From: Cetorhinus maximus
Taxonomy: Eukaryota
Direction: 5' to 3'
Length of the DNA: 64,000 nucleotides
NCBI RefSeq assembly: GCF_964194155.1
Contig: NC_135890.1
Location: forward strand, 107,198,001 to 107,262,000
Shown: positions 4,354 through 55,776 of the stretch, piece by piece
Position numbering within the stretch: the first letter of the stretch is position 1
Layout of the letters: every line of letters begins with the position of its first letter
The notes under the pieces: model-generated
Databases searched by the model: none
What the model was told of the DNA's origin: nothing
What the model saw: only the letters and a program-made list of their open reading frames with translations
Program-made: the position numbers and the translations under genes

Positions 4354-4821
4354 TTAACCACCTCGTAGACGTAGCATGAGGAAGATGGTGCTCTCAGGCT
4401 GAATATTGTAGTCGGCGAGTGTCCGACCATCCTCCAGCTGTTTCCCCTCGCACACCAGACGCTGCTGATTGGCTGGGACACCCTCCTGCTGTTGTACCCG
4501 TGCTCTAAAATCCCGAACAGACTCAGAGGGATGAACGTCATATGTAGATGTTTTCCCCTTGTCATTCTTCAGGAATATCTGCATGCACTCCTCGTTCTTG
4601 ACAATCAGCATGACCTCATGACTGGGAGAGACATTGTAGTCAGACAGCCTCCTGCTGTCCTGCAGCTCTTCAGTGTTTCCATTTTGCACCACCAGGCGCT
4701 GTCGGAAATGGGGCACCTTGGTTCTTTCATATATCATCTTCTTCAGAGCTGACACTTGGATGGAATGGTCAATATCAAGTTCAATAACCTCACCGGTCAT
4801 AAACTTCACCCGGAGTCTCAT
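4354..4821 (-). CDS. ISG15: ISG15-like di-ubiquitin protein, type A copy 1 (155 aa, ends LRLRGG-stop)
   Basis: Two tandem UBL domains ([17 protein letters not shown]; [32 protein letters not shown]). Single coding exon with acceptor ttcatttcttaacag 12 nt before the ATG. ISREs upstream. Confidence 0.92.
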
Positions 4822-12429: not shown

Positions 12430-12897
12430 TTAACCACCTCGTAGACGGAGCATGAGGAAGATGGTGCTCCCAGGCTGAATATTGTAATCGGCGAGTGTCC
12501 GACCATCCTCCAGCTGTTTCCCCTCGCAAACCAGACGCTGCTGAGTGGCTGGGACACCCTCCTGCCGTTGTACTCGTGCTCTAAAATCCTGAACAGACTC
12601 AGAAGGAAGAACGTCATATGTAGATGTTTTCCCCTTGTCATTCTTCAGGAATATCTGCATCCGCTCCTCGTTCTTGACAATCAGCATGACAGCATCGCTG
12701 GGAGAGACATTGTAGTCACACAGCCTCTTGTTATCCTTCAGCTCCACAGTGCTCCCATTTTGCACCACCAGGCGCTGTTGGAAATAGGGCACATTGGCTT
12801 TTTTGTATATCATCATCTTGAGAGCCGAGATTTGGATGGAAGGGTCAACATCAAGTTCAATATCTTCACCGGTCAAAAACCTCACCTGGAGCCTCAT
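12430..12897 (-). CDS. ISG15: ISG15-like di-ubiquitin protein, type B copy 1 (155 aa, ends LRLRGG-stop)
   Basis: ATG at 12897 (the ORF track starts earlier at a TTG), acceptor ctcttaacag 12 nt upstream, two UBL domains, LRLRGG-TAA. Confidence 0.92.
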
Positions 12898-14595: not shown

Positions 14596-16935
14596 AATTT
14601 GTGGAATGTCTATAAGATGGCTTTTTGGAGCAGCTTGTGGTGGAGCCCACGAGGGGACAGGCAATTCTAGATTTAGTGATGTGAAATGAGGCAGATTTGA
14701 TAAGGGTGCTTAAGGTGAAGGAGCCCTTAGGAGGAAGTGACAATAATATGATAGAATTTACCCTGCAATTTGAGAGGAAAAAGCTGGGATCAGATGTAAC
14801 TGTATTACAGTTGAATAAAGGCAACTACAGAGGCATGAGGGAGGAGCTGGCCAGAATTATCTGGGAGATGAGCCTAGCAGGAATGACAGTGGAACAGCAA
14901 TGGCAGGAGTTTCTGGGAGACACATCAAAAATTCATCCCTTGGAAGAAGAAGTATACTAAAGGGAGCACGAAGCAACCATGGCTGACAAGGGAAGTCAGG
15001 GACAGCATAAAAGCGAAAGAGAAAGCATACAATGCGGCAAAGAGCAGTGGGAAACCAGGGGATTGGGAAGCCTACAAAGACCAACAGAGGACAATTAAAA
15101 AATAAATAAGGAGGGAGAAGATTAAATATGAGTGTAAACTGGCCAGTAATATAAAAGAAGATTGCAAGAGTTTTTTTTAGATATATAAAGAGTAAGAGAG
15201 AGGCAAAAGTGGACATTGGGCCGCTGGAAAATGATGCTGGAGAAGTAGTAGTGGGGAACAAAGAAATGGCGGAGGAACTGAATAGGTACTTTGCGTCAGT
15301 CTTCGCGGTGGAAGACACGAGCAACATCCCAAACGTTCAAGTGGGTCGGGGGACAGAGGTGAGTATGGTGGCCATTACTAAGGAGAAGCTGCTAGGAAAA
15401 CTGAAAGGTCTGAAGGTGGATAAATCACCTGGGCCAGATGGATTACACCCCAGAGTTCTGAAGGAGATAGCTGAAGAGATAGTGGAGGCGTTAGTGGTGA
15501 TCTTTCAGGAATCACTGGAGTCAGGGAGGGTCCCAGAGGACTGGAAATTCGCTTATGTAACCACCCTGTTTAAGAAGGGAGTGAGGCAAAAGATGGGAAA
15601 TTACAGGCCGATTAGCCTGACCTCGGTCATTGGTAAGATTTTAGAGTCCATTATTAAGGATGAGATTTCAGAATACTTGGAAGTGCATGGTAAAATAGGG
15701 CAAAGTCAGCAAGGTTTCATGAAGGGGATGTCATGCCTGACAAATCTGTTCCAGAAGGCCTTTGACAAGGTGCCGCACAGGAGGCTGCTCAGTAAGATAA
15801 GAGGCCATGGTGTTAGAGGCAAGGTACTAGCATGGATAGAAGATTGGCTGTCTAGCAGGAGGCAGAGAGTGGTGATAAGGGGATTCTTCTCAGGATGGCA
15901 GCCGGTGACCAGTGGAGTTCCGCAGGGGTCAGTGTTGGGCCCACAACTTTTCACTTTATACTTTAATGATCTTGATGAAGGAACTGAGGGCATCCTGGCT
16001 AAGTTTGCAGATGATACAAAGATAGGTGGAGGGACAGGTAGTATTGAGGAGGCGGGGAGGCTGCAGAAGGATTTGGACAGGTTAGGAGAATGGGCAAAGA
16101 AGTGGCAGATGGAATACAACGTGGGCAAGTGTGAGGTCATGCACTTTGGTAGGAAGAATAGAAGTATAGACTATTTTCTAATTGGGGAGAGAATTCAGAA
16201 TTCTGGAGTGCAAAGGGATTTGGGAGTCCTACTCCAGGATTCTCTTAAGATTAACTTGCAGGTTGAGTAGGTAGTTAGGAAGGCAAATGCAATGTTGGCA
16301 TTTATTTCGAGTGGACTAGAATATAAAAGCACGGATGTGCTGCTGAGTCTTCATAAGGCTCTGCTCAGACCACATTTCGAATATTGTGAGCAATTTTGGG
16401 CCCCGAATCTCAGGAAGGATGTTCTGGCCCTGGAGAGGGTCCAGAGGAAGTTCAGGATCACGATCCCAGGAATGAAAGGCTTAACATATGCGGAACGTTT
16501 GAGGGCTCTGGGTCTATACTCAATGGAGTTTAGAAGGATGAGGGGGGATCTGATTGAAACTTACAAAATACCCGAAGGCCTGGATACAGTGGACATGGGG
16601 AAGATGTTTCCATTAGTCGGAGGGACTAGGACCCGAAGGCACAGCCTCAGAGTAAAGGGAGGAACTTTTGGAAGAGAGATGAGGAGAAACTTCTTTAGCC
16701 AGAGAGTGGTGACTCTATGGAATTTATTGCTACAGAAGGCTGTGGAGGCCAGGTCAGTGAGTGAACTTAAAACTGAGAGAGATAGGTTCTTGATTGGTAA
16801 GGGGATCAAAGGTTATGGATAGTAGGCGGGAGAATGGGGTTGAGAATCTTATCAGCCGTGACTGAATGGTGCAGCAGACTTGATGGGCCGAATGGCCTAA
16901 TTTTTGCTCCTATGTCTTATAGTCTCATGGTCTTA
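14596..16935 (+). mobile_element. CR1 LINE ORF2 (5'-truncated, RT domain), inserted only in unit 1
   Basis: RT motifs KSPGPDG, NYRPISLTS, FQKAFDKVPH, GVPQGSVLGP, FADDTK, with stops and frameshifts, and a tatgtcttat..ggtctta tail. Empty site aagtca|ggtagag at ~35836. Confidence 0.95.
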
Positions 16936-25737: not shown

Positions 25738-26205
25738 TTAACCACCTCGTAGTCGTAGCATGAGGAAGATGGTGCTCTCAGACTCAATATTGTAGTCGGC
25801 GAGTGTCAGACCATCCTCCAGCTGTTTCCCCTCGCACACCAGACGCTGCTGATTGGCTGGGACACCCTCCTGCCGTTGTACCCGTGCTCTAAAATCCCGA
25901 ACAGACTCAGAGGGATGAACGTCATATGTAGATGTTTTCCCCTTGTCATTCTTCAGGAATATCTGCATCCGCTCCTCGTTCTTGACAATCAGCATGACCT
26001 CATGACTGGGAGAGACATTGTAGTCAGACAGCCTCCTGCTGTCCTGCAGCTCTTCAGTGTTTCCATTTTGCACCACCAGGCGCTGTCGGAAATGGGACAC
26101 CTTGGTTCTTTCATATATCATCTTCTTGAGAGCTGACACTTGGATGGAATGGTCGATATCAAGTTCAATAACCTCACCGGTCATAAACTTCACCCGGAGC
26201 CTCAT
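25738..26205 (-). CDS. ISG15: ISG15-like di-ubiquitin protein, type A copy 2 (155 aa, ends LRLRGG-stop)
   Basis: Intact ORF with 6 aa differences from A1. The exon starts at 26217 after ttaacag. Confidence 0.92.
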
Positions 26206-33664: not shown

Positions 33665-34132
33665 TTAACCACCTCGTAGACGTAGCATGAGGAAGATGGT
33701 GCTCTCAGGCTTAATATTGTAGTCGGCGAGTGTCAGACCATCCTCCAGCTGTTTCCCCTCGTACACCAGACGCTGCTGAGTGGCTGGGACACCCTCCTGC
33801 CGTTGTACCCATGCTCTAAAATCCCGAACAGACTCAGAGGGACGAACATCATATGCAGATGTTTTCCCCTTGTCATTCCTGAGCAAAATCTGCTTCCGTT
33901 CCTCGTTCTTGACAATCAGCATGACAGCATCGCTAGGAGAGACATTGTAGTCACACAGCCTCTTGTTGTCCTTCAGCTCCACAGTGCTCCCATTTTGTAC
34001 CACCAGGCGCTGTTGGAAATAGGGCACATTGGCTTTTTTGTATATCATCATCTTGAGAGCCGAGATTTGGATGGAAGGGTCAACATCAAGTTCAATATCT
34101 TCACCGGTCAAAAACCTCACCTGGAGTCTTAT
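33665..34132 (-). pseudogene. ISG15: ISG15-like type B copy 2 with the start codon mutated ATG>ATA (pseudogene or N-truncated)
   Basis: Plus strand gtcttatcttgtc versus gcctcatcttgtc in B1, giving ATA at 34132-34130. The frame is otherwise open to LRLRGG-TAA. The MQIF motif is altered to KQIL. Confidence 0.75.
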
Positions 34133-40165: not shown

Positions 40166-41339
40166 TCATTGGATTAAAGCCTCCCGGGTGTCCCTGCCTC
40201 CTTGGTGTAGTGCTGGGTCAGTGTGCAGCCTCTCATCATTGCCCTGTGCTTCCTCATCCTCCAATCCACTGCTGGACTCATCGTGTGCAGCCACATCCAC
40301 TGTGTCAAGGTCTTCATCGTCCACTGCGTCCCCCCTTTCCAGCGCAAGATTGTGCAGAGCATAGCATGCTACCACTATCACAGAGACAGGATCTGGGGGG
40401 TACTGGAGTGTGCCCCCTGAGCGGTCCAGGCATTGGAAGTGCATCTTGAGAAGACTGATGGTTCTCCCCACCACATCCCTTGTGGTGCCCTGGCTCCTAT
40501 TGTAGCGCTGCTCAGCTTCTGTTCTTGGATGGTGGAGAGGCGTCATGAGCCACCTTTGGAGGGGATAGCCCTTGTCACCCAGCAGCCATCCATCCAGCCA
40601 GCCCGGCACCTGGGAGTGTCTGAGGATGTAGGCGTCGTGGGAGCTGCCTGGGTACCTTGCACAAACTTGTAGAATCTGCATCCTGTGATCACACACTATC
40701 TGCGCGTTCATGGAGTGGAAGCTCTTTCTGTTGACGAAGGCATCGGGCTCACCTGCTGGCGCCTTGATGGCTACATGTGTACAGTCTATTGCACCCTGGA
40801 CACGGGGGAAGCCAGCAATGGCTGTGCCTGGCTTGCCTGGTCCCAGTGGAAGTGGATGAAGGTCAATGCACGTCTGTAACCTGCTTGACACGAGTGTGCA
40901 CAGCTGATTAGGAGACACTGTAAAGATCACCCACTGAGCCCTGGAAGGAGCCAGAGGCATAGAAGTTGAGGGCAGCTGTGACCTTCAGAGCCGCTGGCAT
41001 GGGGTGTCCGCCCACACAGTTAGGAGAGATCTCAGGGCCAATCATCTGACAGATGTAGTTGAGCGTCTCCCTTGACAGTCGGAGCCTCCTTTGGCACTGC
41101 GCCTCAGTCATACTGAGGTAGCTGCTTTGCCGCCTGTATACCCTGGCAGCAGGATAGTGGCATCTTCTGTAGCCCCTTCCACCTTGGACTACCTCTTGGC
41201 CCTGCGCCCCTTGTGCCTGCACCTGTACTCCCAAAGGTGGCTCCCCTGGAGGCTGATTGTCCAGTCCTGGCCTCCTCCTTATTCTATCCCTCCCTTCCTC
41301 TTCAGAGGAGCTGCCTCCAGTAGAGATGTCAGAACCCAT
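40166..41339 (-). pseudogene. Harbinger DDE transposase (HARBI1-like), frameshifted
   Basis: LKVTAALNFYASGSFQ; GFPRVQGAIDCTHV; NRKSFHSMNAQIVCD; YPGSSHDAYIL; LLGDKGYPL; ACYALHN. Frameshift near 40920-40960. Confidence 0.92.
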
Positions 41340-41573: not shown

Positions 41574-42495
41574 AGCAGCACAGCCACATCACTGCAATAC
41601 CACAGTCATATCAGAGCCATATCACAGCAATATCAATGCAATACCACAGCCATATCAGAGCCATATCACAGCAATATCACAGCAATACCACATTCATATC
41701 AGAGCCATATGACAGCAATACCACAGCCATATGACAGCAATACCACAGCCATATGACAGCAATACCACAGTCATATCAGAGCCATATCACAGCCATAGGA
41801 CAGCAATACCACAGACATATCAGAGCCATATCACAGCAACACCACAGCCATATCACAGCAATACCACAGTCATATCAGAGCCATATCACAGCAATACAAC
41901 AGCCATATGACAGCAATACCACAGCCATATGACAGCAATACCAGTGTCATATCAGAGCCATATCACAGCAACACCACAGTCATATCACAGCAATACCACA
42001 GTCATATCAGAACCATATCACAGCAATACCACAGCCATATCACAGCAACACCACAGCCAGATCACAGCAATACCACAGTCATATCAGAGCCATATCACAG
42101 CAATACCACAGCCATATCACAGCAACACCACAGCCAGATCACAGCAATACCACAGCCATATCACGGCAATACTACAGCCATATCACTGCAATACCACAGC
42201 CATATCACTGCAACACCTCAGCCATATCACAGCAACACCACAGCCATATCACAGCAATACCACAGTCATATCAGAGCCATATCACAGCAATACCACAGCC
42301 ATATCACAGCAATGTCTCAACCATATCACAGCAATATCACAACCATATCACAGCAATACCACAGCCATATCACAGCAATACCACAGGCATATCAGAGCCA
42401 TATCACAGCAATAACACAGCCATATCACAGCAATGCCACCGCCATATCACAGCAATACCACGGTCATATCAGAGCCATATCACAGCCATATCACA
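41574..42495 (+). repeat. Minisatellite of ~11-bp units (CACAGCCATAT alternating with CACAGCAATAC)
   Basis: About 0.9 kb of directly visible tandem repeat with 22-bp higher-order periodicity. Confidence 0.95.
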
Positions 42496-42549
42496 TTACT
42501 GGCACTAAAGCCCTGAGGAAAATTGGAGCTGTAGTTAATGTCTCAAGTT

Positions 42550-43110
42550 GTTAAAACCAAAGGGCTACATTGTGTCTGAATGAAATGTTGTTCCTCAAGC
42601 TTATGTTGGGCATTGGAATGCTTTAGAAGGCCAAAGACAAAGTGGTCAGAGTGTGTGTGGAAATGGAATAGAATAGCAAGTGACAGGGAGTTTGGTGTTA
42701 CACTTGTCAGCAGAATAGAGGCATTCAGCAAAGCGATTGGCCAATCTGCTGCTGGTTTCCCTAATGCAGAGGAGACTGCTCCATAAGCAGCCATCGCTGT
42801 GTATTAGGTTGGAGGAAGTACATGTGAATTGCTGTCTCACACAGAAAAAGTGTTTAGGGATTGAACTGTGGTGATGGAGGAAGTGAAAGGCCATTTTTTA
42901 CATCTTTTGAACTTGCATGGGAAGATGCCAGGGGAAGGCAAATACATGATAGGAGTGATGGAAGAGTGAAGCAGAATGTAACAGAGGGAACAGTCCCTTT
43001 GTGGCACGGGGAGGGGAGGGGTTGGGAAGTTGTGTTTGGTGCTGGGTTCGCTTAGAGGGGTCAGAAATGACAGAAGGTGATCTATCAACTGAGGTCAGGC
43101 AAGGCTCAGC
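42550..43110 (-). mobile_element. Penelope-like element fragment (GIY-YIG remnant)
   Basis: LLCIRETSSRLANRFAECL resembles the YIGET.R.L..RF.EH motif. A related copy lies at 48680-49320. Confidence 0.65.
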
Positions 43111-43635: not shown

Positions 43636-43692
43636 GAAATGAAACCGAAACCAAACAGTCAAAACAAGTCGTGTTTCTGAGGAAATCGAAAG
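43636..43692 (+). promoter_or_regulatory. OASL promoter ISREs
   Basis: GAAATGAAACCGAAACC at 43636-43652 and GGAAATCGAAAG at 43681-43692, about 220-270 nt upstream of the ATG. Confidence 0.8.
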
Positions 43693-43907: not shown

Positions 43908-44081
43908 ATGATGGAATTATACAGCACTGATCACAAGAGGTTGGACGATTTCATTAAAACTAACCTGGAGCCGAATGAATTTAATACCAATGTGAGGAAT
44001 GCTGTGCACAGAATCTGTGAATTTTTAAGGAATCGATGTTTTCTCAAACAACCTGAGATCAAAGTAATCAGAGCCGTTAAA
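43908..44081 (+). CDS. OASL: OASL coding exon 1 (of 6; total 1509 nt, 502 aa)
   Basis: MMELYSTDHKRLDDFIKTNLEP..ICEFLRNRCF..VIRAVK matches the OAS N-terminus. Donor AAA|gtaagt, phase 0. Confidence 0.9.
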
Positions 44082-46191
44082 GTAAGTTATTTTATTTTTA
44101 AAGCAGCACATGGAATTAATAATGTTTACAATACTATTTACAATATCAGAAACTTTACCTTGCTTAAGTACGGAGATGTTTTCTGACGTGATTGTAAAGT
44201 TTCCTGTTTTCTGTGTTGTACTCCCTTCTCTCTAGAATATGTAAACTCGCTGTAGGACACAGTTTCAAGGGTGGCAGTTGCCTCCAGTATCTCAACTAAA
44301 TTAATGGGATTAGGTGGGATCATCATCATTTCATGGGACGATCTCAAAATGATGTCGATTTGCCCTTACAACGGCACAAATTTCCCGGAAAACCTGGATT
44401 AAAAGGGGATTATTTGCCTAAAGGGACAGAATGTTTTTGACCTGCTTGTTTTAAAAGCTCAGCAGCTTTAGATGTTTATCTGTTAAAGGGAACATTTACT
44501 TCAAATCTGTTTCTCTTAAAAAACTACATTTGGATGAACTTTTATCAAATTATTAATTTTATCATGCTTTAAATATGCTCCTCAAAATCAATAACAGTCC
44601 CAATTCCTAAAGTCACAACACACTTGTAAAGCAATTTTAATTTAAAGGCAATAAAGAACTGGTGTGTTACCTGAAATACACATTTCATGTTATTTAGCAA
44701 TAAATGAAACCCAAAAATTTGGGAAGAGAGGGAATTTCCCTTCTCCTCCCCACCACCCCCACCAATTCTGAGCACCCCCTCTAATCATCTGATCTTCAGT
44801 CAGCTGCAATAATATCAATTTTCTCTTTAGGGGAGGGAAGCAGGAGTCGGGACTGTTACTTTGTCCTGGGACCAGAGGGATACCAGTCACTCTTTGGGAT
44901 TTTGCCCAGAGTGCTCTTTTAATTGACATGGAGACAGGTCCCTCCTCCAGTTAAGAGCAGTGGGTGGGCTCTCGAAGCTGGAGGGGCAATCTGGGGCCTT
45001 TTAGCTTGAGAGGACCACCTGGCTATAGCACAAGGTAAGTAACTAAGAGGGTGCTTCAACATGGAGGTGCTCTTTCAGTAACCAATTGAAAAATTTAGTC
45101 AAGAAGTATAGAAATGAGCCAGGCCGCCACTGTGGGTCTTTTGATGGAGGGAGGGGGCGATTCGCTGTTTGGCTGCAATCGCACCAGGACACGGGTCGGG
45201 GGGAGGAGGGGGCCTGCCTGCTTAGGGCACTGCCCCCTCTCCCAGCCATTGGATGCCTGCCTCCAGGCAGTTGAACTGCCCTAGTCACATCAGGAAAGTG
45301 GAGACTGACTGGAATCTGAGTCAGCCTCTAATACCCACTGTTAACAAAGATCTTAATGAGTTGACCTAATTGACTTCTGGGTTGGGCATTTTAGCCGGGC
45401 TCCCAAACCCGCCTCCCCCAAGGTGGCCAATATGGGAATGGTGTCTGGAAACCGGCTGCCGACCATTTTGAATTCAGCTCTGTCCCTGACTTCAGCAGGG
45501 CCTGAAAATTCAGTGCAGTGAGTCTGTCACATTTACTCTTGTACAAGGGATGGCAGAGAGAGCAGGTCACAGCTAAATGATAGTTAGTGGCTTCACTCTT
45601 GTTTAAGCTTTTTAAAAAGAAAACTGTCAAGAGATTTAGTTTGCAACTTATGATTTTATTGTCATACTTAAACAGAAAGTTGTTTGGCAGATTGTGACTT
45701 GGTAGCAACTCTGCCACTGGCTAAGAATAAAAATGCAAAGAATTATATTAATCCCCACAAAAAGATCACCAAATAGGGCAATACCACTCTGTTGATAACA
45801 GAGTTAAAATTGAGCACAAAGGCTAGACAAGAAGGGAACAATCAACCCAGGTTTCCCAATCCTGTTCAGTGAGGACAAGATTAGGCTGTGATGCCCCATA
45901 TGGTTGAATAGCCTGTTGTCACCTGTGGTCCAAGATAACATATGAATAATGGCTAATGAGGGGAATTGCTGAAGTGGGCTTCTGGACCTCTGTCTCATTA
46001 AAGTGTCAGCACCTTCACAAAAAGACGGCAAGAGGACAAAAATCAGAAGGAAAATGGCAGTGAAAATTAAGCCTAAATCAAGAACACAGATAGTCTGCAT
46101 GGCTTCAATAACTCTTCCACATTTCAGTAATGGTAAGTTCACCAGTCATTGAAATAATCATAAATAATTGTCTATTTTCCCTCCTCCTCAG

Positions 46192-46492
46192 GGAGGGTCG
46201 TCAGGCAAAGGAACAGCTTTAAGAAACGGTTCAGATGCGGATCTGGTTGTCTTCCTCAGTTGTTTCCAGAGTTTCCAGGAGCAGAGGAACACCAGGCATG
46301 AAATCCTTGAAGGAATCCAGCAAATGCTGGAAAAGTGTGCTTTGAGTATTGCCTATGAGATCAGTGATATCAGTATCAATTTTATACCGAACAGCAACAG
46401 CCCACCAAAATCGATGAGCTTTTCAATAAAATCAAAGAAGAAAGATTCAGACAGCGTGGATTTTGATATTTTGCCAACATTCGATGCATTAG
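46192..46492 (+). CDS. OASL: OASL exon 2 (nucleotidyltransferase core)
   Basis: GGSSGKGTALRNGSDADLVVFL..VDFDILPTFDAL. Acceptor ctcctcag, donor G|gtaaga, phase 1. Confidence 0.95.
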
Positions 46493-47053
46493 GTAAGAAT
46501 TGATGCGGTTATTAAATCATTAAAGCTCAAGTTTAATTTTAGTTCTTCCAATAGCCTCTGTTGTCCATCAAGAAAAACAGTGGGTGTTATCAGCTTTGCT
46601 TTATCACATGTCCTGTTCCTAGTTAAGATGATGCCATAGTTGAGCTCTATATTTGGTTATTAGAGTTGTTGCTGAGGGAGAATATGTTGCTTTTTAAGTG
46701 GGACATTAGCCTAGGTTTAGGATTGACATTATTAACTGGCGTTAACGGTTTGGTATTATGATGCTGATGGAAAGTCTAGGATACAAACACTTTAACGTAA
46801 AGAAACAAAATCTAACCAGTAATGTTGATGTCTGAATTTATTTCATTTCCCCTCCTTTTCTAAAGCAAATGATTCAGTTCCTTAGTCACCAGAAGTGCCT
46901 GGTACTTCTGTCAGCTGATCATTTTTCATACAAAAACAGGAGTGTCAGCAGCAACACAAAAATAAAATACTGTGGATGCTGAAAATCTGAAATAAAAGCA
47001 GAAAGTGCTGAAAATATTCATCGTGCCTAGCAGCGCCTGTGGAGAGAAACAGA

Positions 47054-48335
47054 GGCCTGGATTTCACCATGATGGAGGGCCTTTCCTCCATGTTGAAAAT
47101 AGTGGACAAGCCCGGAAATAGGAAGTCCCACCCCCAAACACCACACTTTCCATTTTCGTGAGGTGGGAATGAAGTTGGGCTGGGGTTTGTGCATAGGTGG
47201 ATTATGGATGCAGCTGGTGGTATAAATCACCAGCTGCCTCCACTGAAGTGGGATTTTGGTCAGCCGGGTGTGTGAAACCCAAAGTGTGTAGATTGGACCA
47301 GTTGAGAGTAGGGCCCAGGTTTCTGCCCAGGGGTTGGGAGATTTTCTGGCTCGGCGAACGCAATCTTTAAAAGTGTCTGCCCGCCAGTCAGATTTTTGGT
47401 CAACAAATGGAGGTGAAGCTTAAATAGGAGTTGGGTCGGGTGATCCCAGAACAAGTGCAGTGGCTAGTGGGTGTAGAGGCGGGATGGGCGCAAGGCCTGA
47501 AAAACAAAACACATCCCTCCTACCTCACCCCTTGCCCCCTCACCCTCCCGCACACACCCTGTGCCTCGTCCATGCGAACCCATGCTCCTGTACACACACC
47601 CCATGCCTCTTCATACCCCCATGCCAACTTAGTGTCAACTCACTCCAACTCCTGCCCCAACCCACCACCCTTTGCCTCTAACCCTCTTCATGCCAACTCA
47701 CCAAGAATCTATGGACAGTTCCTTGACAGCTTTGATAGCTGAACAGTTATTTGAAAGCCAGACAGTTCTTCAATAGTTCCTTGACAGCTGTACAGCTCTT
47801 TAACATTTATTTGCTAGCTGGACAGTTCTTTAACAGCTGGACAGTCCTTTAACATTTATTTGACAGCTGGACAGTTCTTTAAGAGTTTCTTGACAGCTGG
47901 ACAGTTAAATATTTCTTTGACATCTGGACAGTTCCAAGGAGATTCTGTGTAAAAAGTGCGTAATCATGTTTAATTTTAACGATGCTAAAGGCTGCCTTAC
48001 CTCTCCCAAAGGTGTCTCAAGACTCTACACAAGGGGGTACCCTGACTATCCAAAGAATCCACCAAGCTCAGACCGCCTCTTACGTGGTCTGCTCTGCGCA
48101 GTTCCAGATTCCAGCAGCCAAAGTTCAAAAATCCCATTTCAGTGGAGGAACTGGTGATTTAAATGGCCAGCTGCTTCCACAAATCGCGCATGTGCAAAGC
48201 CTGGGCCCACTCCAGTCTCGCCCTCACGAAGATGGGAATTACTGGGTTCGGGGGTGGGACTTAGAAATTTCTGACATTTTTGAGACTTTTGCCACGCCGG
48301 AGAAGCTCTCCGACCCGTGTGTGAAAATCCAGGCC
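47054..48335. mobile_element. Non-autonomous TIR element (Harbinger-like) inserted in a short interspersed repeat
   Basis: TIRs ggcctggatttcac / gtgaaaatccaggcc and a 3-bp TSD AGA. It splits ggagagaaacaga|gttaacatttcagg. Internal gacagctggacagttc tandem repeats at ~47715-47935. Confidence 0.85.
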
Positions 48336-48679
48336 AGAGTTAACATTTCAGGTCAACCTTTCATCAGAAATCTTCTTTCGGATCAGGCAAAAGTTAGAAG
48401 TGAAATAAGTTTAAAGCAAATCAAAGGGAGGAGGGTGGGAAAAAGAATAAAGGGAACAGTGTTTGAAAGGTAGGGGAGATTAGATGACAAATGTGTTGAT
48501 AGTGAAAGGCCAAAAGGGAGTGGTATTTTGGACAGGTTATAAAAGAGATGTTTCTGCAGGAGGTGTCAATGGCAGTGTCATGAACAGCTGCCATCTGCAG
48601 GCAAAAAAAATGGAGAAAAACAGGAGAGAAAAAATAAAATCAGCAAAGAAAAAGGAAACAAATGGAGGCTGAGGTCACG

Positions 48680-49320
48680 ATTTGAAGTTGTTAAACTCAA
48701 TGTTGAATCCAGGAGAGTGTAGAGTGTCTGATTTAAAGATGAAATGCTGTTCCTCAAGCACACGCTGAGCCTCCAGTGTAGGAGGTCAGCGATAGAGGTC
48801 AGAGTGGGAGCATGGTCCAGAATTAAAATGACAGGTTTGGGGAAGTTTGGGGTTATCTTGCAGACTGAATGGAGATGTTCTGCAAAGTAGTCACCAAATC
48901 TGCATTTGGCTTCTCCAGTGTAAAGGAGGCAGGGACGGCAGGAATCTAAATTGAGTAAATTAATGTTTCACCTGGAAGGAATCTTTGAGGCTTTGGACAG
49001 TTAGAAGGGAAGAGGTAAAAGGCCAGGCATTGTATCTGCTGTGATTGCATGGAAAGGTGCTGTGGGAAAGAGAGGGAGGTGCTGGCAGGGTGATTGAGGA
49101 GTGGACCAGGGTGTTGCGAAGGAATTGGTCCTTTTCAAAAAGAAGGGAAGATGTTTTTAGGTGGCGGCGGTGGTGAGAATAGTGGAGGATGATCCATTGA
49201 AGAAAAAGGCTGGTGGGGTAGTAGGTGAGGACCAGTGGAACCCTATTGTGGTCCTGGAGGGAAAAGGAAGGGTTGAGAGAAATATGTAAAATGGAACAGA
49301 TATGGCACAACGGACTTAAA
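48680..49320 (-). mobile_element. Penelope-like element fragment
   Basis: RVPLVLTYYP..; minus strand YTGEAKCRFGDYFAEHL. Confidence 0.65.
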
Positions 49321-49433
49321 ATGTAAGAGTGTTAAAGGATTACTTGGCCTAGAGAGTGGGGGCACCATACCCTGCTTACTTGTGATGACCACAAACACTT
49401 TCTGTTGCTCATTAAGCATTTCATTTCTTACAG

Positions 49434-49609
49434 AGGGAACAGACAATGCCAATGATGCCCACCTCAAGCTAATCAAGTTAGTAAACGAAAATGGAGCTCT
49501 AGGTGGCGAATTTTCTGCCTGTTTTACTGAGCTTCAGAGAAACTTTGTGAAGCAGTGTAAACCAAAACTTAAAGACTTGATTCGCCTGCTGAAGCATTGG
49601 TACAAGCAG
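49434..49609 (+). CDS. OASL: OASL exon 3
   Basis: GEFSACFTELQRNFVK..KLKDLIRLLKHWYKQ (OAS signature). Acceptor ttcttacag, donor CAG|gtaagt, phase 0. Confidence 0.95.
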
Positions 49610-51668
49610 GTAAGTGACTGGGGAATGTGCTAATTGTTAATGCTTGGAGGTTATGGGAGGATTGTAACACTAAATGACAGCTTCCCTCTGTGTCCCAACG
49701 TCCACCCGCTCCATTGACAAATACTACAGGTGAATCCAGGGATTCCCCATATTAAAAACTAGCAAAGAGTTGTCTGGGATGTTTGCATGGAGGGGGATTG
49801 AGAGAACCTTTGGAGAAAAGTCCATTTGTGCTGTTTCTCCAGCACCTACACCAGTCTCTGCTGAATTTACAACAGGAGGTTAGCAGATCCCAGAGGAAGT
49901 CAGGCTCAGTATTTGGAATAACTCAAGATTCTTGCTTCCCCTCTGCTGGAATTTGACTTTGGTTGAAGCTGTTGGAATGAATTTGGACGAAGGGGAGAGC
50001 TCCTGTCCACCTTCTGGGTTAGGCCGAACAAATATTAAAACCACTTCTTGATTCTCAAAAGAATTAAAGAGCAAATCCCCTGAACCCATATTCTGTGGAG
50101 GGGCTGTATTCAAGGGAAGTACAGATCAGAGATAGAGCCTCAACCCTTCAATTTCCACCTACTTCCAATAAGGCTCTACATTTAGAGTGAGGATCAGGGA
50201 TTTTATCCTTAAATCTTTTACAGTCCCTCAATATTGTGCCTTAAAGTGAACGTCTCAAGTTATATAAACCTGCAAATGGCAAGTTTGACCAGCCCCCTAT
50301 ACAAAGCCAAAGGCTGTATTCAATTCTCCAGTGCCTGGGGCTCCAGAATGCAGGACAAAAGACAACCAAACCCAAGTTAATTAATCGCTGAAGGAACAAT
50401 TGAAAAATGATGAGGTGGAAATTGGTTCTCATGGTGCCATTTTTCCAAGTGGGAAATTGAGGCAAAAAATGACCAATTTCAACCAAAGGCGCCTGAAATA
50501 TGACCGGTGCAATAAGGGTCTTGGACAATTTCCAGGTGTCCGGGCAACTGTCCGGAACAGGCATTATGCTCCTTGAATATGTTAATGCGGGATCTAATGC
50601 CTGTTTAACGAGGTTTACTGCAACTGGTCAGCGCTGAGTGGTCACCTCAGATTTTTGCTTCCACGTGCAACTTCTACATTAATACATTTTTATACTTCAT
50701 GTAGGGGCAGGGTCTCCTCCCAGTGGTGCTCCCAACTTCACTGCTGCTACCAGCCCACCATCACCCACCTCCCCACTCTCTCCCTATCTGATGGTCATTG
50801 CTGGAGAGGCAGCTGGCTGATCTTGGTCCTCATGGAACCTGTGAGCTGTTGTTTCATACCCAATTTGAGTCCGCATCTTCCCAGCAAATTTCTGATAATG
50901 TCCCGAGGTCTAATTTCAGTTGAGTCCCTGGCTTCTGGTGCACACTCCCAGCATGCTGCCTACTTCAGGCAAGAAAATGGACCAAAATAAATTTCTACCC
51001 CAGTCACTTTCAGGTGAGATATTCAATGAAAGCCTTGCCTGCCCTCTCAGGTGAGCCTAAACGATCCTATCACACTCTCCGGGGAAGAGTAGGGTGTTCT
51101 GCTGGATATCTGGATAAAATTTAACCTCAACCAACATAATGAAAAACAGACAATCTCGCCATTTATCTCATTGTTGTTTGTGGGATCTTGCTGTGTGCAA
51201 ATTGGTTGCTGCATTGCAACTTCAAAATACCTCATCTTGGGAAGTGCTTTGGGAAATTTTGAGGTTGTGAGAGGTGTTACGTACCTAATGCCAAGTACTT
51301 GCTTTCTTTTGAACCCTGACTCTCCAACGCACTATTCTGTAGGATCATGTCCACAATTTGCCCATGGACAGTTTGTGTGCTCAGCCTTATCTTTGTGGAG
51401 AGATACTGAACGGAGATTTGGCATTTCATCCAATAGAAGGAGAAAAAGTTGGAATGAGGCCACTTTGGGCAGATCTTGTGGATTTCTTAGTGCATGCTGG
51501 GGTGGCAGCACTAGACTAGGTCTAGCTTCAACCAGTCCTATCAAGAAAGTTGCTTGGTTTCCAAAGAATGATGGAAGTAAAATATATGGAAGCAAAAATA
51601 TCGGATGGAAGGAGGAGTGAGTACTTTTAATATCTTGTATATTTACATTTATCAATCATTTGCTCTAG

Positions 51669-51919
51669 CATGTCAAGCCACGGAAATCCGATCTGAGACC
51701 TGGCGAACGTCTTCCTGCTAAGTATACAGTGGAGCTGCTGGCTATCTATGCCTGGGAGCAAGGCAATGGGCAGGAGAGATTCAGCACAGCTGAAGGGTTC
51801 CGGACAGTCCTTGAACTGATCTGCAGATATCAGGATCTGTGCATCTACTGGACTCAGAACTACAACGTCGAGAATAGAGTCATTGCAGACTTTCTAATAA
51901 AGGAACTCAGTGGCAAGAG
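51669..51919 (+). CDS. OASL: OASL exon 4
   Basis: HVKPRK..LPAKYTVELLAIYAWEQG..AEGFRTVLELI..LCIYWT.NY. Acceptor tgctctag, donor AG|gtaatc, phase 2. Confidence 0.95.
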
Positions 51920-52591
51920 GTAATCTTCAAATACATTTAAAACTAAACCAATTAGAGCTGTTTCATTTCTTTGAACAGCTCCCAAGTAAGGGGGCGTTTT
52001 TAGGGTCTGGTTCAGCTGGTCTTTAATATCCATTCCTAACTTTGGCGTCATGGAGTGTCGAATAAGTGACATATTGGCTGCATCATTTGAACGTGATGAA
52101 TGTGCAACTGAATGTTTGGAGTGAGAGTCAATCCAACACATTGTTCTTTGTGAAAATGTGCCCAAGAGGCAACAGTTTTCATAACGCTACTTTCTCATGT
52201 GAGATTGTACTAAACTACCATTAAAAAGTCTGCTCTTGCTCCTTCCCCAACTAATGTTTAAGGTCAAAATATTAACTCTCATTTACAAACCTCACCATCA
52301 TTTCATCTATTTGCCCTATCCTGCCTCAGCCACATCCTCCAGCCTTTTTTCCAACTCATGCCCTCAACCTCCTGTGTATTGCCATCTCTCTTATTTGGCA
52401 CCATTAGCAAAGTTATAAGTCATCTTAGTGCCACATTACGGAACTCTTCATAAAATTCTTTGCCTCACTTTGTCTTTTCCCATTTTCAATAATCGCCTGA
52501 AAACCTTCGGTCAGATCCTCAGATTCTACTACCGGTCAGGATCTGTTTCTTTCCGCTGTATCTTAAGATATTTACAATATTTAAATCTAAA

Positions 52592-53326
52592 AGAAGCCGA
52601 CCACTGCTCACGATTGGGGCCGGACCGTGATTTCATGCTGGTGGGCCAATTAAGGCCCGCCCAGCGTGAAACGCGCACTGCAGCACGGCCTGTATTGGGG
52701 GGGAAGGAGGGCAAGAGTGCAAGTTCGCGCAAGCGCGAGTAGGAAAAGCTCCCTGAGGCACAGAGCTGCCTCAGCGGAATGAAGTTATGAAAATTTAAAA
52801 AGAAAGCATTTTAAGATGTTAAAAAACATGTCCCCTCATGTGACTCTGTCACATCAGTAAGGACATGTTAGAAATTAGTATGAACATTTTTTTAAATGAC
52901 GGATTGAAATCTCATCCCGTCTGTGGATGAGGATTCGCAAAAAATGCAAAGGCCGCTTTGACCGCAAAGGCTGAGCTGAGAGATGGTGATCGTCTTCCTG
53001 CTAAGTACAGAGTGGAGCTGCTGGCTATCTATGCCTGGGGGCAAGGCAATAGGCAGGAGAGAGTCAGCACAGCTGAAGGGCTCCAGACAGTCCTTGAACT
53101 GATCTGCACATATCAACATCTGTGTATCCACTGGACCAAGTAGGTGACGAGCTGAACGCCAACCGTAAGGTTGGACAGGCAGCAAAAAATTTAAATCAAT
53201 TAGGTTGTTAATGGCCTTAATAGGCCTGTTAGTTGTCGGTGGGCGCACTGCCAATTCCTGCGCGTGCCCATCAACCCAAATATCACACGTCATGTACACC
53301 TGCCCAACGAGCGAGGAATCCTGCCC
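52592..53326 (+). mobile_element. Harbinger-related MITE carrying an inserted OAS exon-4 fragment
   Basis: Shares gggccaattaa.gcccgcccag with the Harbinger left end (~36510). Ends aatcctgccc|taa. Inverted homolog of 54252-54914. Confidence 0.78.
52963..53140 (+). pseudogene. Partial diverged copy of OAS/OASL exon 4
   Basis: ELRDGDRLPAKYRVELLAIYAWGQG..TAEGLQTVLELICTYQHLCIHWTK*. It lacks the native acceptor and the 3' part of the exon. Confidence 0.88.
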
Positions 53327-53600
53327 TAACTTTCTGTGGAGAGTTTAACTTGTAAATAAACACAAATATAGCAATTCCTTGAAATACACAAGGTGTTTGA
53401 CAGTGAAACTACCGACAGAACAGCGCCAATCATCCAGCAATTTATGCTGATTCCAAACCCATGGGGTTTCTCTTTCCGACCTTGAATTGTTGGATGATTT
53501 CCACAATAATAACAATGAGCGCCATTAAACTTGTCAATATTTTGCCAGCAAACCCCAGCCTATGGTTAATAATTGTTTTTGGAACTGTTTTATTTTTCAG

Positions 53601-53733
53601 GCCAATAATTCTTGACCCAGCTGACCCAACTGGAAATGTGGCTTTGTCTAATGGATGGTATGTCATGGTGGCTGAGGCTAAGAAATGTCTGAGCATGCCA
53701 TGTGCCTCTCAAGTTCCAGAATGGGAATTCCAG
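53601..53733 (+). CDS. OASL: OASL exon 5
   Basis: RPIILDPADPTGNVA..W..EAKKCL..W (OAS signature). Acceptor tttttcag, donor CAG|gtaaaa, phase 0. Confidence 0.95.
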
Positions 53734-54251
53734 GTAAAACAGTTTTAATAAATCATAAAGTTTTGAAACAAAACAGTATAAAATGTAGAAATTTTGTAGA
53801 TTGTGTTGTTCAATCTAGGAGTTCCATCTGTATAGAATACATAGGACCATAGGACTGAGGAGCAGGATTTGAAATTAGCTCTCAGACGCAAAGGATCATG
53901 TTCTCATTGGGGAGAATTTTCGACGAAGTCACCACCTGTCATTTTACGTGTTGGCGAGCGGGGCCTGCCCCCTCACGCTGACCCGAAGATTCAGGCCATT
54001 AATTACCTCAATCCTCCTTTGGAAACTTCATTCTTTAAAGCAAGCTGGAAATGATAGACCAGTTGCCGGGATTTAAAGATATATATAGAGAGTCACATTA
54101 ATCAGAAGCTCCCCAGGTTCAATTCTCAGTCCATACAGAGTTAGAGGATATCAACGAGGTGAAGGTGGGAGTGCTACAATTCACCTCAACACCCCTGTGC
54201 TCAAGCTGCAGAAAGAATCAGCTGGGATTCCCGCTGACCACATATTATATG

Positions 54252-54914
54252 TGGACAGAAATTTTTTCTCGGTTGGTGGGCGCGTGCCTGACCCGCTGAA
54301 GCATGAAATGACACATGAGACCTTTGGCCAAACGTGCCGGGGTCAACGTGCAGTTGCGCAATAGTTCGGCCAACGGGTGTGCACTGGAGCCAAAGTGCGC
54401 CCGCCGGCAATTAAGACCATTAAGTAATTAATTAACGTAAATTTTTCACTGCCTGCCCAACCTAATGGCTGGCGGGCAGGCGAAAAGACCAAGCAGCCTT
54501 TGCATTTTTTTTGGAAACCTTATCCACAGGCGGACGAGTTTTGCAAGAGCAAATAAAAATAAAATAAAATCTTTAATTTTTAATTAACAACATGTCCCTG
54601 CTTATGTGGTAGAATCACATGAGGGGACATGTTTCAGTACATTTTTAATTTTTATAATTATTTTCTTTCATATCTCTTACGGCTGCCTCAGGGATGTTAT
54701 GCAGCATTCACTCCCGCGTATTCGTGAAGTTCACACCCTTCCTGATCACTCTCCTCCCCCCCCTCACACAGGCACCGCTCAGCGTTGCCACTCACATGTC
54801 ACGCTGGGCGGGCCTTCATTGGCCGCCAGCGTGAAATCTCGGTGCAGTGCCGATCGCGAGCGGCTTCCCAACCAGCCCTGCCGAGCCCGCAGGCCAAGGG
54901 CAAAATTCTGCCCC
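54252..54914 (-). mobile_element. Harbinger-related MITE
   Basis: Ends ggacagaaatttt / aaaattctgcccc match the Harbinger right TIR. Possible 3-bp ATG TSD. Confidence 0.78.
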
Positions 54915-55302
54915 ATGTGTGTGGGTATCAGATAAATATAAGATCCAACTGGGTTGGACAGTTGAGTGAAACTCACTGTCTAAGCTCACACAAGAACAAT
55001 GGCCACTTGTGTGAGATACGGAGTGTAGTTATCACATCATAACAATCAATCAGGAGAGAAAGGATGAAAATTAAGGAGATAAAAGCAAAAAACTGCAGAT
55101 ACTGGAAATCCAAAACAAACACAAAAATACCTGGAATAACTCAGCAGGTCTGGCCGCATCTGCGGAGAGGAGCACAGTTAACGTTTCGAGTCCGAAAGAC
55201 CCTTCAACAGAACTAAGTGAAAATTAAGGAGATGTAATTATCAGAGCACTTAGAAACCAGGACACAACTCATTGCTACATTCTTATTTTTTTTTTGTCTT
55301 AG

Positions 55303-55776
55303 CCAATAAAAGAGTTTGAAATCACTGTGTTTACACTGGATGGGAGCTCATTAAGCCTGAATGTCAATATTGACAACAAAATCTCAATGATCAAGAAACA
55401 AATCCAGCAAGAATGGGACATTCCAGTTTACCAGCAACGCCTGAGCTTTAATAAAGCCATTCTGGATGACAACAAATCCTTGTTGCATTCCGGAATATTC
55501 TTTGATGCAAGGCTCCATCTGGTCATCACAACGTCAATGCAGATATTCGTCAGGACTGTAAATGGGCGTGACCTGACACTTGATGTATCCCCAACTGACA
55601 AGGTTTTGAGCCTGAGAAATAAGATTGAATCTCAGGAGCGCCTTTCATCGAGCCAATACTACCTGACCTATGGATCGATACCATTAGAAGACGGCCGCAC
55701 ACTGGAATCCTACGGCATTCAGCAACATTCCACCATCACCATCAACTTGCGTCTCCGTGGAGGCAAGGAGACTTGA
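55303..55776 (+). CDS. OASL: OASL exon 6: two tandem UBL domains ending LRLRGG-KET-stop
   Basis: Acceptor (t)n-gtcttag, in phase with exon 5. PIKEFEITVFTLDG..YQQRL..; MQIFVRT..LEDGRTLESYGIQ..LRLRGGKET. Confidence 0.93.
   Translation, partial: PIKEFEITVFTLDGSSLSLNVNIDNKISMIKKQIQQEWDIPVYQQRLSFNKAILDDNKSLLHSGIFFDARLHLVITTSMQIFVRTVNGRDLTLDVSPTDKVLSLRNKIESQERLSSSQYYLTYGSIPLEDGRTLESYGIQQHSTITINLRLRGGKET

Follow-up and report, generated by a model that had tools for sequence, protein, structure and literature searches.

Introduction

Can an enzyme that synthesizes 2'-5'-oligoadenylates (2-5A) also serve as a protein modifier? This question is raised by a stretch of 64,000 nucleotides from the shark Cetorhinus maximus (RefSeq assembly GCF_964194155.1, contig NC_135890.1, positions 107,198,001 to 107,262,000 of the forward strand; the window), in which a gene referred to here as OASL encodes an oligoadenylate synthetase followed by two ubiquitin-like domains (UBLs), the second of which ends in LRLRGG, with the residues KET and a stop codon thereafter. 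By architecture, the gene is a member of the OASL/OASa.U class. The explanation that accounts best for the overall evidence is that the protein is processed and conjugated in the manner of avian OASL, a reading which depends on that analogy and to which we give slightly better than an even chance.

Gene structure and domain organization

The six coding exons are bounded by AG acceptors and GT donors throughout and keep their phase (174+301+176+251+133+474 nt), giving a product of 502 residues plus stop with 0 differences from the RefSeq models XP_078410450.1/451.1 of C. maximus (P0021), which are named '2'-5'-oligoadenylate synthase 1A-like'. All five exon joints are present in contigs of four presumed-RNA runs from related sharks; the RNA nature of these runs is guessed, none being on record as RNA, and their sequences are mostly 85-99% alike, so that the joints document the orthologue rather than the Cetorhinus copy. 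The joint between exons 5 and 6, on which an earlier note on this DNA had made its proposal depend, is found in two of the four runs (X2 and X3). Contigs of three runs span LRLRGG-KET-stop; none of the joints listed falls there, and the sole difference listed within it is silent. An artefact or mis-splicing was considered and is ruled out by the exon ends and phase, the RefSeq identity and the joints in relatives. The exon ends and the RefSeq identity thus confirm the in-phase six-exon structure of the earlier note. An incomplete second copy of exon 4 (90% alike) lies in intron 4 (52973-53136, plus strand) and recurs in all six OASL copies of the array described below; no joint to it is among those listed from the relatives' runs.

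Pfam identifies NTP_transf_2, OAS1_C (5e-66) and two ubiquitin stretches (8e-30) in the protein. The AlphaFold model has a predicted local distance difference test score of 85 and a predicted template modelling score of 0.77, and a fold search with it returned porcine OAS1 bound to double-stranded RNA (dsRNA) as the top match (E 3e-32). Pfam and the fold search agree on a single nucleotidyltransferase (NTase) plus OAS1_C unit, and Pfam and the model on two tandem C-terminal UBLs. The second, UBL2, comprises exactly 76 residues (M424-G499) and is followed by KET-stop, as had been noted; in the model it adopts a beta-grasp fold with the conserved LRLRGG at positions 71-76, whereas the KET tail is disordered and the final five residues score below 50.

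The enzyme half and its setting

The loop GGSSGKGT begins at residue 59, and D73, D75 and D150 align with the triad D75/D77/D148 of human OAS1, which bears out the earlier description of an intact loop, D-A-D pair and third aspartate. R194, K198 and K203 align with dsRNA-binding residues, and the roles of their homologues in dsRNA binding have been described (PMC6019448). An RNase L gene with ankyrin, kinase and RNase exons is located at C18:76.54-76.57 Mb; it was recovered at a looser threshold, the stricter one returning only two IRE1 genes. In yeast, OASa of the ghost shark (Callorhinchus milii) together with RNase L slows growth via mRNA decay (PMC10400998). Taken together, the residues, the fold, the presence of RNase L and the ghost-shark assay make it very probable that OASL is an active, dsRNA-dependent 2-5A synthetase.

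Approximately 270 bp upstream of the ATG lies a triple GAAA element resembling an interferon-stimulated response element (ISRE), from which we infer that OASL would be induced by interferon. The pattern, picked after the site had been seen, has one match in the window against 0.02 expected, and two of 100 shuffles reach one; such an element also precedes four of the six OASL copies.

Conservation of the di-glycine end

LRLRGG is present in 19 of 20 chondrichthyan OASL rows and LQLRGG in the other, so that L-x-LRGG is kept in all 20; when each genus is represented by a single row, Y42, N70, R72, R74, G75 and G76 (ubiquitin positions) do not vary in any of the 13 genera, in a domain with merely 29-37 of 76 residues identical to ubiquitin. 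Outside cartilaginous fish, RLRGG is kept in seven of eight non-mammalian rows (coelacanth, lungfish, caecilian, zebra finch and three more), the remaining row, P0156, having LRLREG, and the LRLRGG end is found in none of four mammalian OASL rows. The conservation in orthologues that the earlier note had asked for is therefore observed and, because it extends from chondrichthyans to coelacanth, lungfish, caecilian and bird, the di-glycine end is likely to be ancestral in jawed vertebrates and to have been lost in mammals. Of the refuting outcomes named for the proposal, the three that sequence can address were not encountered.

The residues after the di-glycine also resemble a pro-peptide, as had been proposed: in 20 single-ended proteins they number 3 to 21 and vary, with proline at P1' in none. 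A proline directly after the di-glycine blocks deubiquitinases. Five RefSeq models with several units, in which splicing runs through GG (P0002, P0005, P0011, P0013 and P0018), were kept out of this count as probable gene-model fusions. Two relatives, P0247 and the second lungfish unit, end directly in GG-stop, the form of a mature modifier. Among seven exon-6 copies in the array, one has GG changed to VG, and in that copy exon 3 and the 5' part of exon 6 are missing as well.

The E1-facing surface and the shark E1 genes

At ubiquitin positions 42, 44, 49, 68 and 70, UBL2 has Y, T, P, T and N. Human ISG15 replaces R42/I44/Q49/H68/V70 of ubiquitin by W123/T125/P130/F149/N151, a patch that touches the activating enzyme (E1) UBA7 and bars ISG15 from UBA1 (PMC10693564, PMC10409785). 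With an offset of 81, R87, R92, T125, P130 and N151 of human ISG15 are identical in the shark domain and W123 is similar, whereas N89 corresponds to V and F149 to T. In the 20 chondrichthyan rows Y42 occurs 20 times, T44 18, P49 11 and N70 18; in a control set of 240 divergent UBL domains, drawn from 58 unrelated proteins and mutually non-independent, an aromatic residue at 42 is found in 5/238, T44 in 25/237, P49 in 22/239 and N70 in 3/240. The earlier note had read positions 42, 44, 68 and 70 correctly and had concluded that recognition by E1 is uncertain; the departure from ubiquitin stands, but since the pattern is that of human ISG15 it speaks against UBA1 and not against conjugation.

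The genome contains three canonical E1 genes: UBA1 (C4153), a UBA6-like gene (C2) and a second UBA1-like gene (C6). The last is a candidate UBA7, as C6 also holds two IP6K genes and UBA7 and IP6K1 are linked in human. A search for the E1_UFD family returned no match anywhere and is uninformative.

Proposed mechanism and alternative explanations

In the mechanism that we propose, interferon would induce OASL through the ISRE-like element, the transcript would be spliced to the 502-residue form, as the joints in related sharks suggest, and the protein would, with high probability, bind dsRNA, synthesize 2-5A and activate RNase L. A protease of the USP/UCH type would probably cut after G499, freeing KET. 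Activation by an E1, the candidate UBA7 being likelier than UBA1, would then lead to conjugation, mostly to OASL itself and to nearby proteins, a step that we consider marginally favoured by analogy. Its likely purpose would be to tether or multimerize the sensor at viral RNA, as a covalent counterpart of the CaaX anchor of a neighbouring OAS paralogue. As a new idea, this mechanism was overstated in the earlier note: in chicken OASL, LRLRGG is followed by further residues that form a pro-tail, and the protein, when overexpressed in chicken cells, becomes conjugated with OASL itself as the main target (PMC8764230), so that processing and conjugation are already published for birds.

Several observations weigh against conjugation of the shark tail. 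The chicken result comes from overexpressed protein, and the parts of the article consulted describe neither a GG mutant nor a named E1 (PMC8764230); it may not transfer, because R42, present in the bird row, is missing from every one of the 20 chondrichthyan rows. The likeness to ISG15 was noticed post hoc, with controls that are non-independent, and P49 is found in just 11 of the 20 rows. In both UBA1-type E1s of the shark the adenylation sheet is still of the UBA1 type, and the Tyr/Ile by which human UBA7 reads W123/T125/N151 are absent; because an ISG15-type patch excludes UBA1 in human, the OASL tail might be read by neither. The same mismatch, a UBA1-excluding patch facing UBA1-like E1 surfaces, favours an active synthetase in which LRLRGG is used without conjugation, for binding USP/ZnF-UBP proteins or RIG-I, as basic charge for dsRNA or as a deubiquitinase decoy. 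It is in keeping with this that the UBLs of bird OASL bind dsRNA and are required for RNase L activation (PMC6019448), and the conservation of Y42 could just as well reflect protease binding, because W123 of ISG15 is also the site of deISGylase recognition (PMC10693564). However, an invariant G75-G76 would be needless for dsRNA binding, and both the relatives ending in GG-stop and the chicken conjugates argue against this explanation, which we regard as possible but less probable than conjugation.

Proteasome receptors read the Ile44 patch. Its absence from UBL2 makes it improbable that the tail is conjugated or recognized chiefly as a degradation signal limiting a toxic enzyme, in the manner of FAT10 and via UBA6 or the proteasome, even though a UBA6-like E1 is present on C2 and OAS activity is costly (PMC10400998). 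The loss of LRLRGG in all four mammalian rows and in P0156 would suit an unused relic of a ubiquitin-derived domain; its retention from Callorhinchus to sharks, rays, coelacanth, lungfish, caecilian and bird, in a domain so diverged from ubiquitin and before a tail that varies freely, leaves this explanation very little room.

If the tail is conjugated, as we favour, OASL conjugation would be an ancestral trait of jawed vertebrates that existed alongside ISG15 and was lost in mammals, and not a patch by which birds made good the loss of ISG15; the shark locus would then offer a test bed with two modifiers of differing E1 face, a candidate UBA7 and a natural chimera. If it is not, what remains is an active OASL of the usual kind within a cluster that has expanded.

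The ISG15-like array and the OASL copies

A 350-kb array (C12:107.07-107.42 Mb) contains 19 ISG15-like genes on the minus strand, six OASL copies and two copies of a second OAS type; the coordinates of its members and of other features are collected in Table 1. Sixteen ISG15-like genes lie upstream of OASL (four in the window) and three are interleaved. They form two alternating subtypes about 82% alike (G000:C12:107074037-107382044); 17 end in GG-stop, two read on for 37 residues and one lacks an ATG, and RefSeq labels them 'polyubiquitin-like' or uncharacterized. The 155-residue product consists of two non-identical UBLs (di-UBL), with lobes 34% and 55% identical to ubiquitin. Its best full-length single-stretch PDB match is ISG15, and in an Atlas search rank 1 was 'polyubiquitin-like', ranks 2 and 4 were ISG15 clusters (0.95 and 0.94) and rank 5 was ubiquitin D (0.93); the ISG15 label rests on the architecture and these matches, as the tree discussed below contained no named ISG15. 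The agrin gene, the neighbour of ISG15 in human, is on C15, apart from the array on C12. The supposition that this species still has ISG15 is supported to the extent that ISG15-like genes are present and, because these share its array, the OASL tail does not stand in for an ISG15 that was lost. Compared with the single ISG15 of most teleosts (PMC13030082), 19 copies represent a large expansion. R42 and Q49 are retained in the shark ISG15-like proteins, which would fit the UBA1-type sheet of the C6 E1; the discrimination between ISG15 and ubiquitin in sharks may therefore differ from the mammalian way.

Of the six OASL copies, three are complete in their exons, a fourth has an exon 6 shortened at its 5' end and the other two additionally lack exon 3. 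The second OAS type ends in a CaaX box (WCILM) after a single UBL; for the single UBL of OAS-B there is a weak trend towards correspondence with UBL1. The ends WCILM, SCILL, WCSIL and CYIM occur among P0018, P0155, P0286, P0144, P0165, P0218 and P0229. Human OAS1 p46 carries a prenylation anchor, and these ends suggest that the anchor is as old as jawed vertebrates. One copy of the second type is an in-frame chimera that continues in phase into an LRLRGG-KET exon; its crossover lies in intron 5 at 107,319,679, the left side being 98% identical to the second type and the right side 97% to OASL; an assembly error is possible.

The contigs that bear OASL and di-UBL genes have the same length in all eight species with both records, which is indirect evidence of linkage; the accession numbers of the two are within 20 of each other in three species (Cetorhinus, Heptranchias and the stingray Hypanus), 70 apart in one and more than 1000 apart in four. 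The array is flanked by a P2RX2-like gene and by PLA2G3-/INPP5J-like genes and not by P2RX7, and the contig of the array also carries an HNF1 gene and a polyubiquitin; the scan compared 108 frames with Pfam, 106 of them chosen from 1058 non-repeat flank frames, and neighbours may be missed. Positional orthology with the human locus, where P2RX7 stands beside OASL, was dropped, since two exons score best against P2X2.

Table 1. Features of the OASL locus and related loci (window positions unless a contig is given)
Feature	Position	Strand	Remarks
Triple GAAA ISRE-like element	43636..43650	+	Upstream of OASL ATG
OASL exon 1, coding part	43908..44081	+	Splice model; exon 1-2 joint in 3/4 runs
OASL exon 2	46192..46492	+	P-loop GGSSGKGT; D73, D75 (46234-46242); D150 (46465-46467)
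OASL exon 3	49434..49609	+	Basic dsRNA groove R194, K198, K203; helix with R209/K212
OASL exon 4	51669..51919	+	OAS1_C
OASL exon 5	53601..53733	+	End of OAS1_C, LDPADPT
OASL exon 6, whole	55303-55776	+	UBL1, UBL2, KET, stop
OASL exon 6, UBL1	55303..55536	+	First UBL
OASL exon 6, UBL2	55537..55764	+	Y465/T467/P472/N493 = ubiquitin positions 42/44/49/70
LRLRGG of UBL2	55747-55764	+	
KET extension and stop codon	55765..55776	+	Putative pro-peptide
ISG15-like di-UBL gene	4354..4821	-	Coding exon, 155 aa, LRLRGG-stop
ISG15-like di-UBL gene	12430..12897	-	155 aa, LRLRGG-stop
ISG15-like di-UBL gene	25738..26205	-	155 aa, LRLRGG-stop
ISG15-like di-UBL copy closest to OASL	33665..34132	-	ATA for start codon, otherwise open frame
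LINE reverse-transcriptase remnant	14857-16822		Pfam
DDE_Tnp_4 (PIF/Harbinger-type) transposase frame and adjacent frame	40166-41339	-	Between ISG15-like array and OASL
Simple tandem repeat	41907-42554		Long open frames
Second OAS type	G000:C12:107406099-107420647	+	One UBL, CaaX end; models P0018, P0155
In-frame chimera	G000:C12:107310288-107321465		CaaX-type OAS exons 1-5 and OASL LRLRGG-KET exon
Second UBA1-like E1	G000:C6:12125694-12242605	-	Candidate UBA7; UBA1-type ubiquitin-binding sheet

Origin of the OASL tail

The phylogenies of 2018 and 2023, in the parts represented here, leave the ubiquitin-like tail of OASL as an unexplained domain gain, and the shark locus points to a possible source for it. 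In a tree of 32 tandem-UBL rows, the tails of coelacanth OASL and of P0172, the enzyme part of which is OAS1-type, join the shark di-UBL genes (100/97). In a subset of 16 rows the support is 93/95 and a single clade of all OASL tails is rejected (approximately unbiased test, p 0.03), a modest test with 160 columns and long branches. The coelacanth UBL2 has 63-68% identity with shark di-UBL, against 42% with Cetorhinus OASL. For non-ubiquitin residues common to the di-UBL genes, both coelacanth lobes and the bird UBL2 exceed 240 of 240 controls; the signal in Cetorhinus UBL2 is modest (shared-derived fraction 0.30; 9 and 7 of 240 controls), and none is found in Cetorhinus UBL1 or in the mammal row. 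As a separate observation, the tail of coelacanth OASL (Latimeria, P0150 / P0286) has in each of its lobes the appearance of an ISG15 that was captured.

We read these relationships as capture of ISG15 by OAS genes on more than one occasion. An origin of the whole Cetorhinus tail from ISG15 was rejected, as UBL1 gives no support (shared-derived fraction 0.10; 181 of 240 controls as high); UBL2 alone possibly has such an origin. UBLs have been gained independently in squamate OAS (PMC10400998). P0172 may be an example of this, or it could be a gene-model fusion of neighbours, in which case it would still be evidence of linkage. In the tree the grouping of the catalytic units does not follow the type of tail, and at least three changes are required. 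A tentative scenario, which we put forward as conceivable and short of probable, is that ISG15 and OAS genes were born in one ancestral interferon-induced locus still kept by sharks, that OASL took its conjugating lobe from an adjoining ISG15, and that tails were swapped repeatedly (in the coelacanth, an OAS1-type tetrapod protein and the array chimera); sharks would then run a ubiquitin-faced ISG15 together with an 'OASLylation' tag bearing the W/T/P/N face that mammalian ISG15 came to use later.

Comparison with known systems

In the literature searched, which covers few subscription journals and includes PMC6307210, PMC11354881, PMC12234341, PMC6002735, 10.1101/693333 and PMC4446440, no report was found of the LRLRGG end of shark OASL, of an OAS-ISG15 cluster or of a CaaX-ended shark OAS; the ISG15-type E1 face, the linkage with 19 ISG15-like genes and the tail exchange are likewise additions that we did not find there. 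The added value of the locus is evolutionary, and lies in the ancestral state, the coexistence and linkage with ISG15, the E1 face and the tail exchange.

The closest parallel is avian OASL (chicken; PDB 7SBI; PMC8764230), which is alike in its intact triad, one OAS domain and two UBLs, and LRLRGG with a short extension is common to both (zebra finch row). The bird UBL2 has R42, whereas that of the shark has Y42/T44/N70, and ISG15 is absent in birds (PMC8764230), whereas 19 ISG15-like copies stand beside shark OASL. The NTase-OAS1_C-UBL architecture is shared with the OASa.U class, including Callorhinchus milii OASa, and is regarded as ancestral (PMC10400998); the Cetorhinus catalytic unit clusters with Callorhinchus units (Shimodaira-Hasegawa-like approximate likelihood ratio test, 100). 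The parts of that article represented here are silent on a di-glycine end, on conjugation and on the source of the UBLs. Two UBLs, LRLRGG and a pro-tail are common to shark OASL and the mammalian ISG15 precursor/UBA7 system (PMC10693564, PMC10409785), but the shark protein adds an N-terminal enzyme of 345 residues and the surface of the shark candidate for UBA7 is of the UBA1 type. With human OASL and mouse Oasl2 the domain order is identical, and the OLD structure 4XQ7 matches the model; human OASL, however, has no enzymatic activity, and LRLRGG is absent from mammalian OASLs (PMC8764230), whereas the shark protein combines an intact triad with this end.

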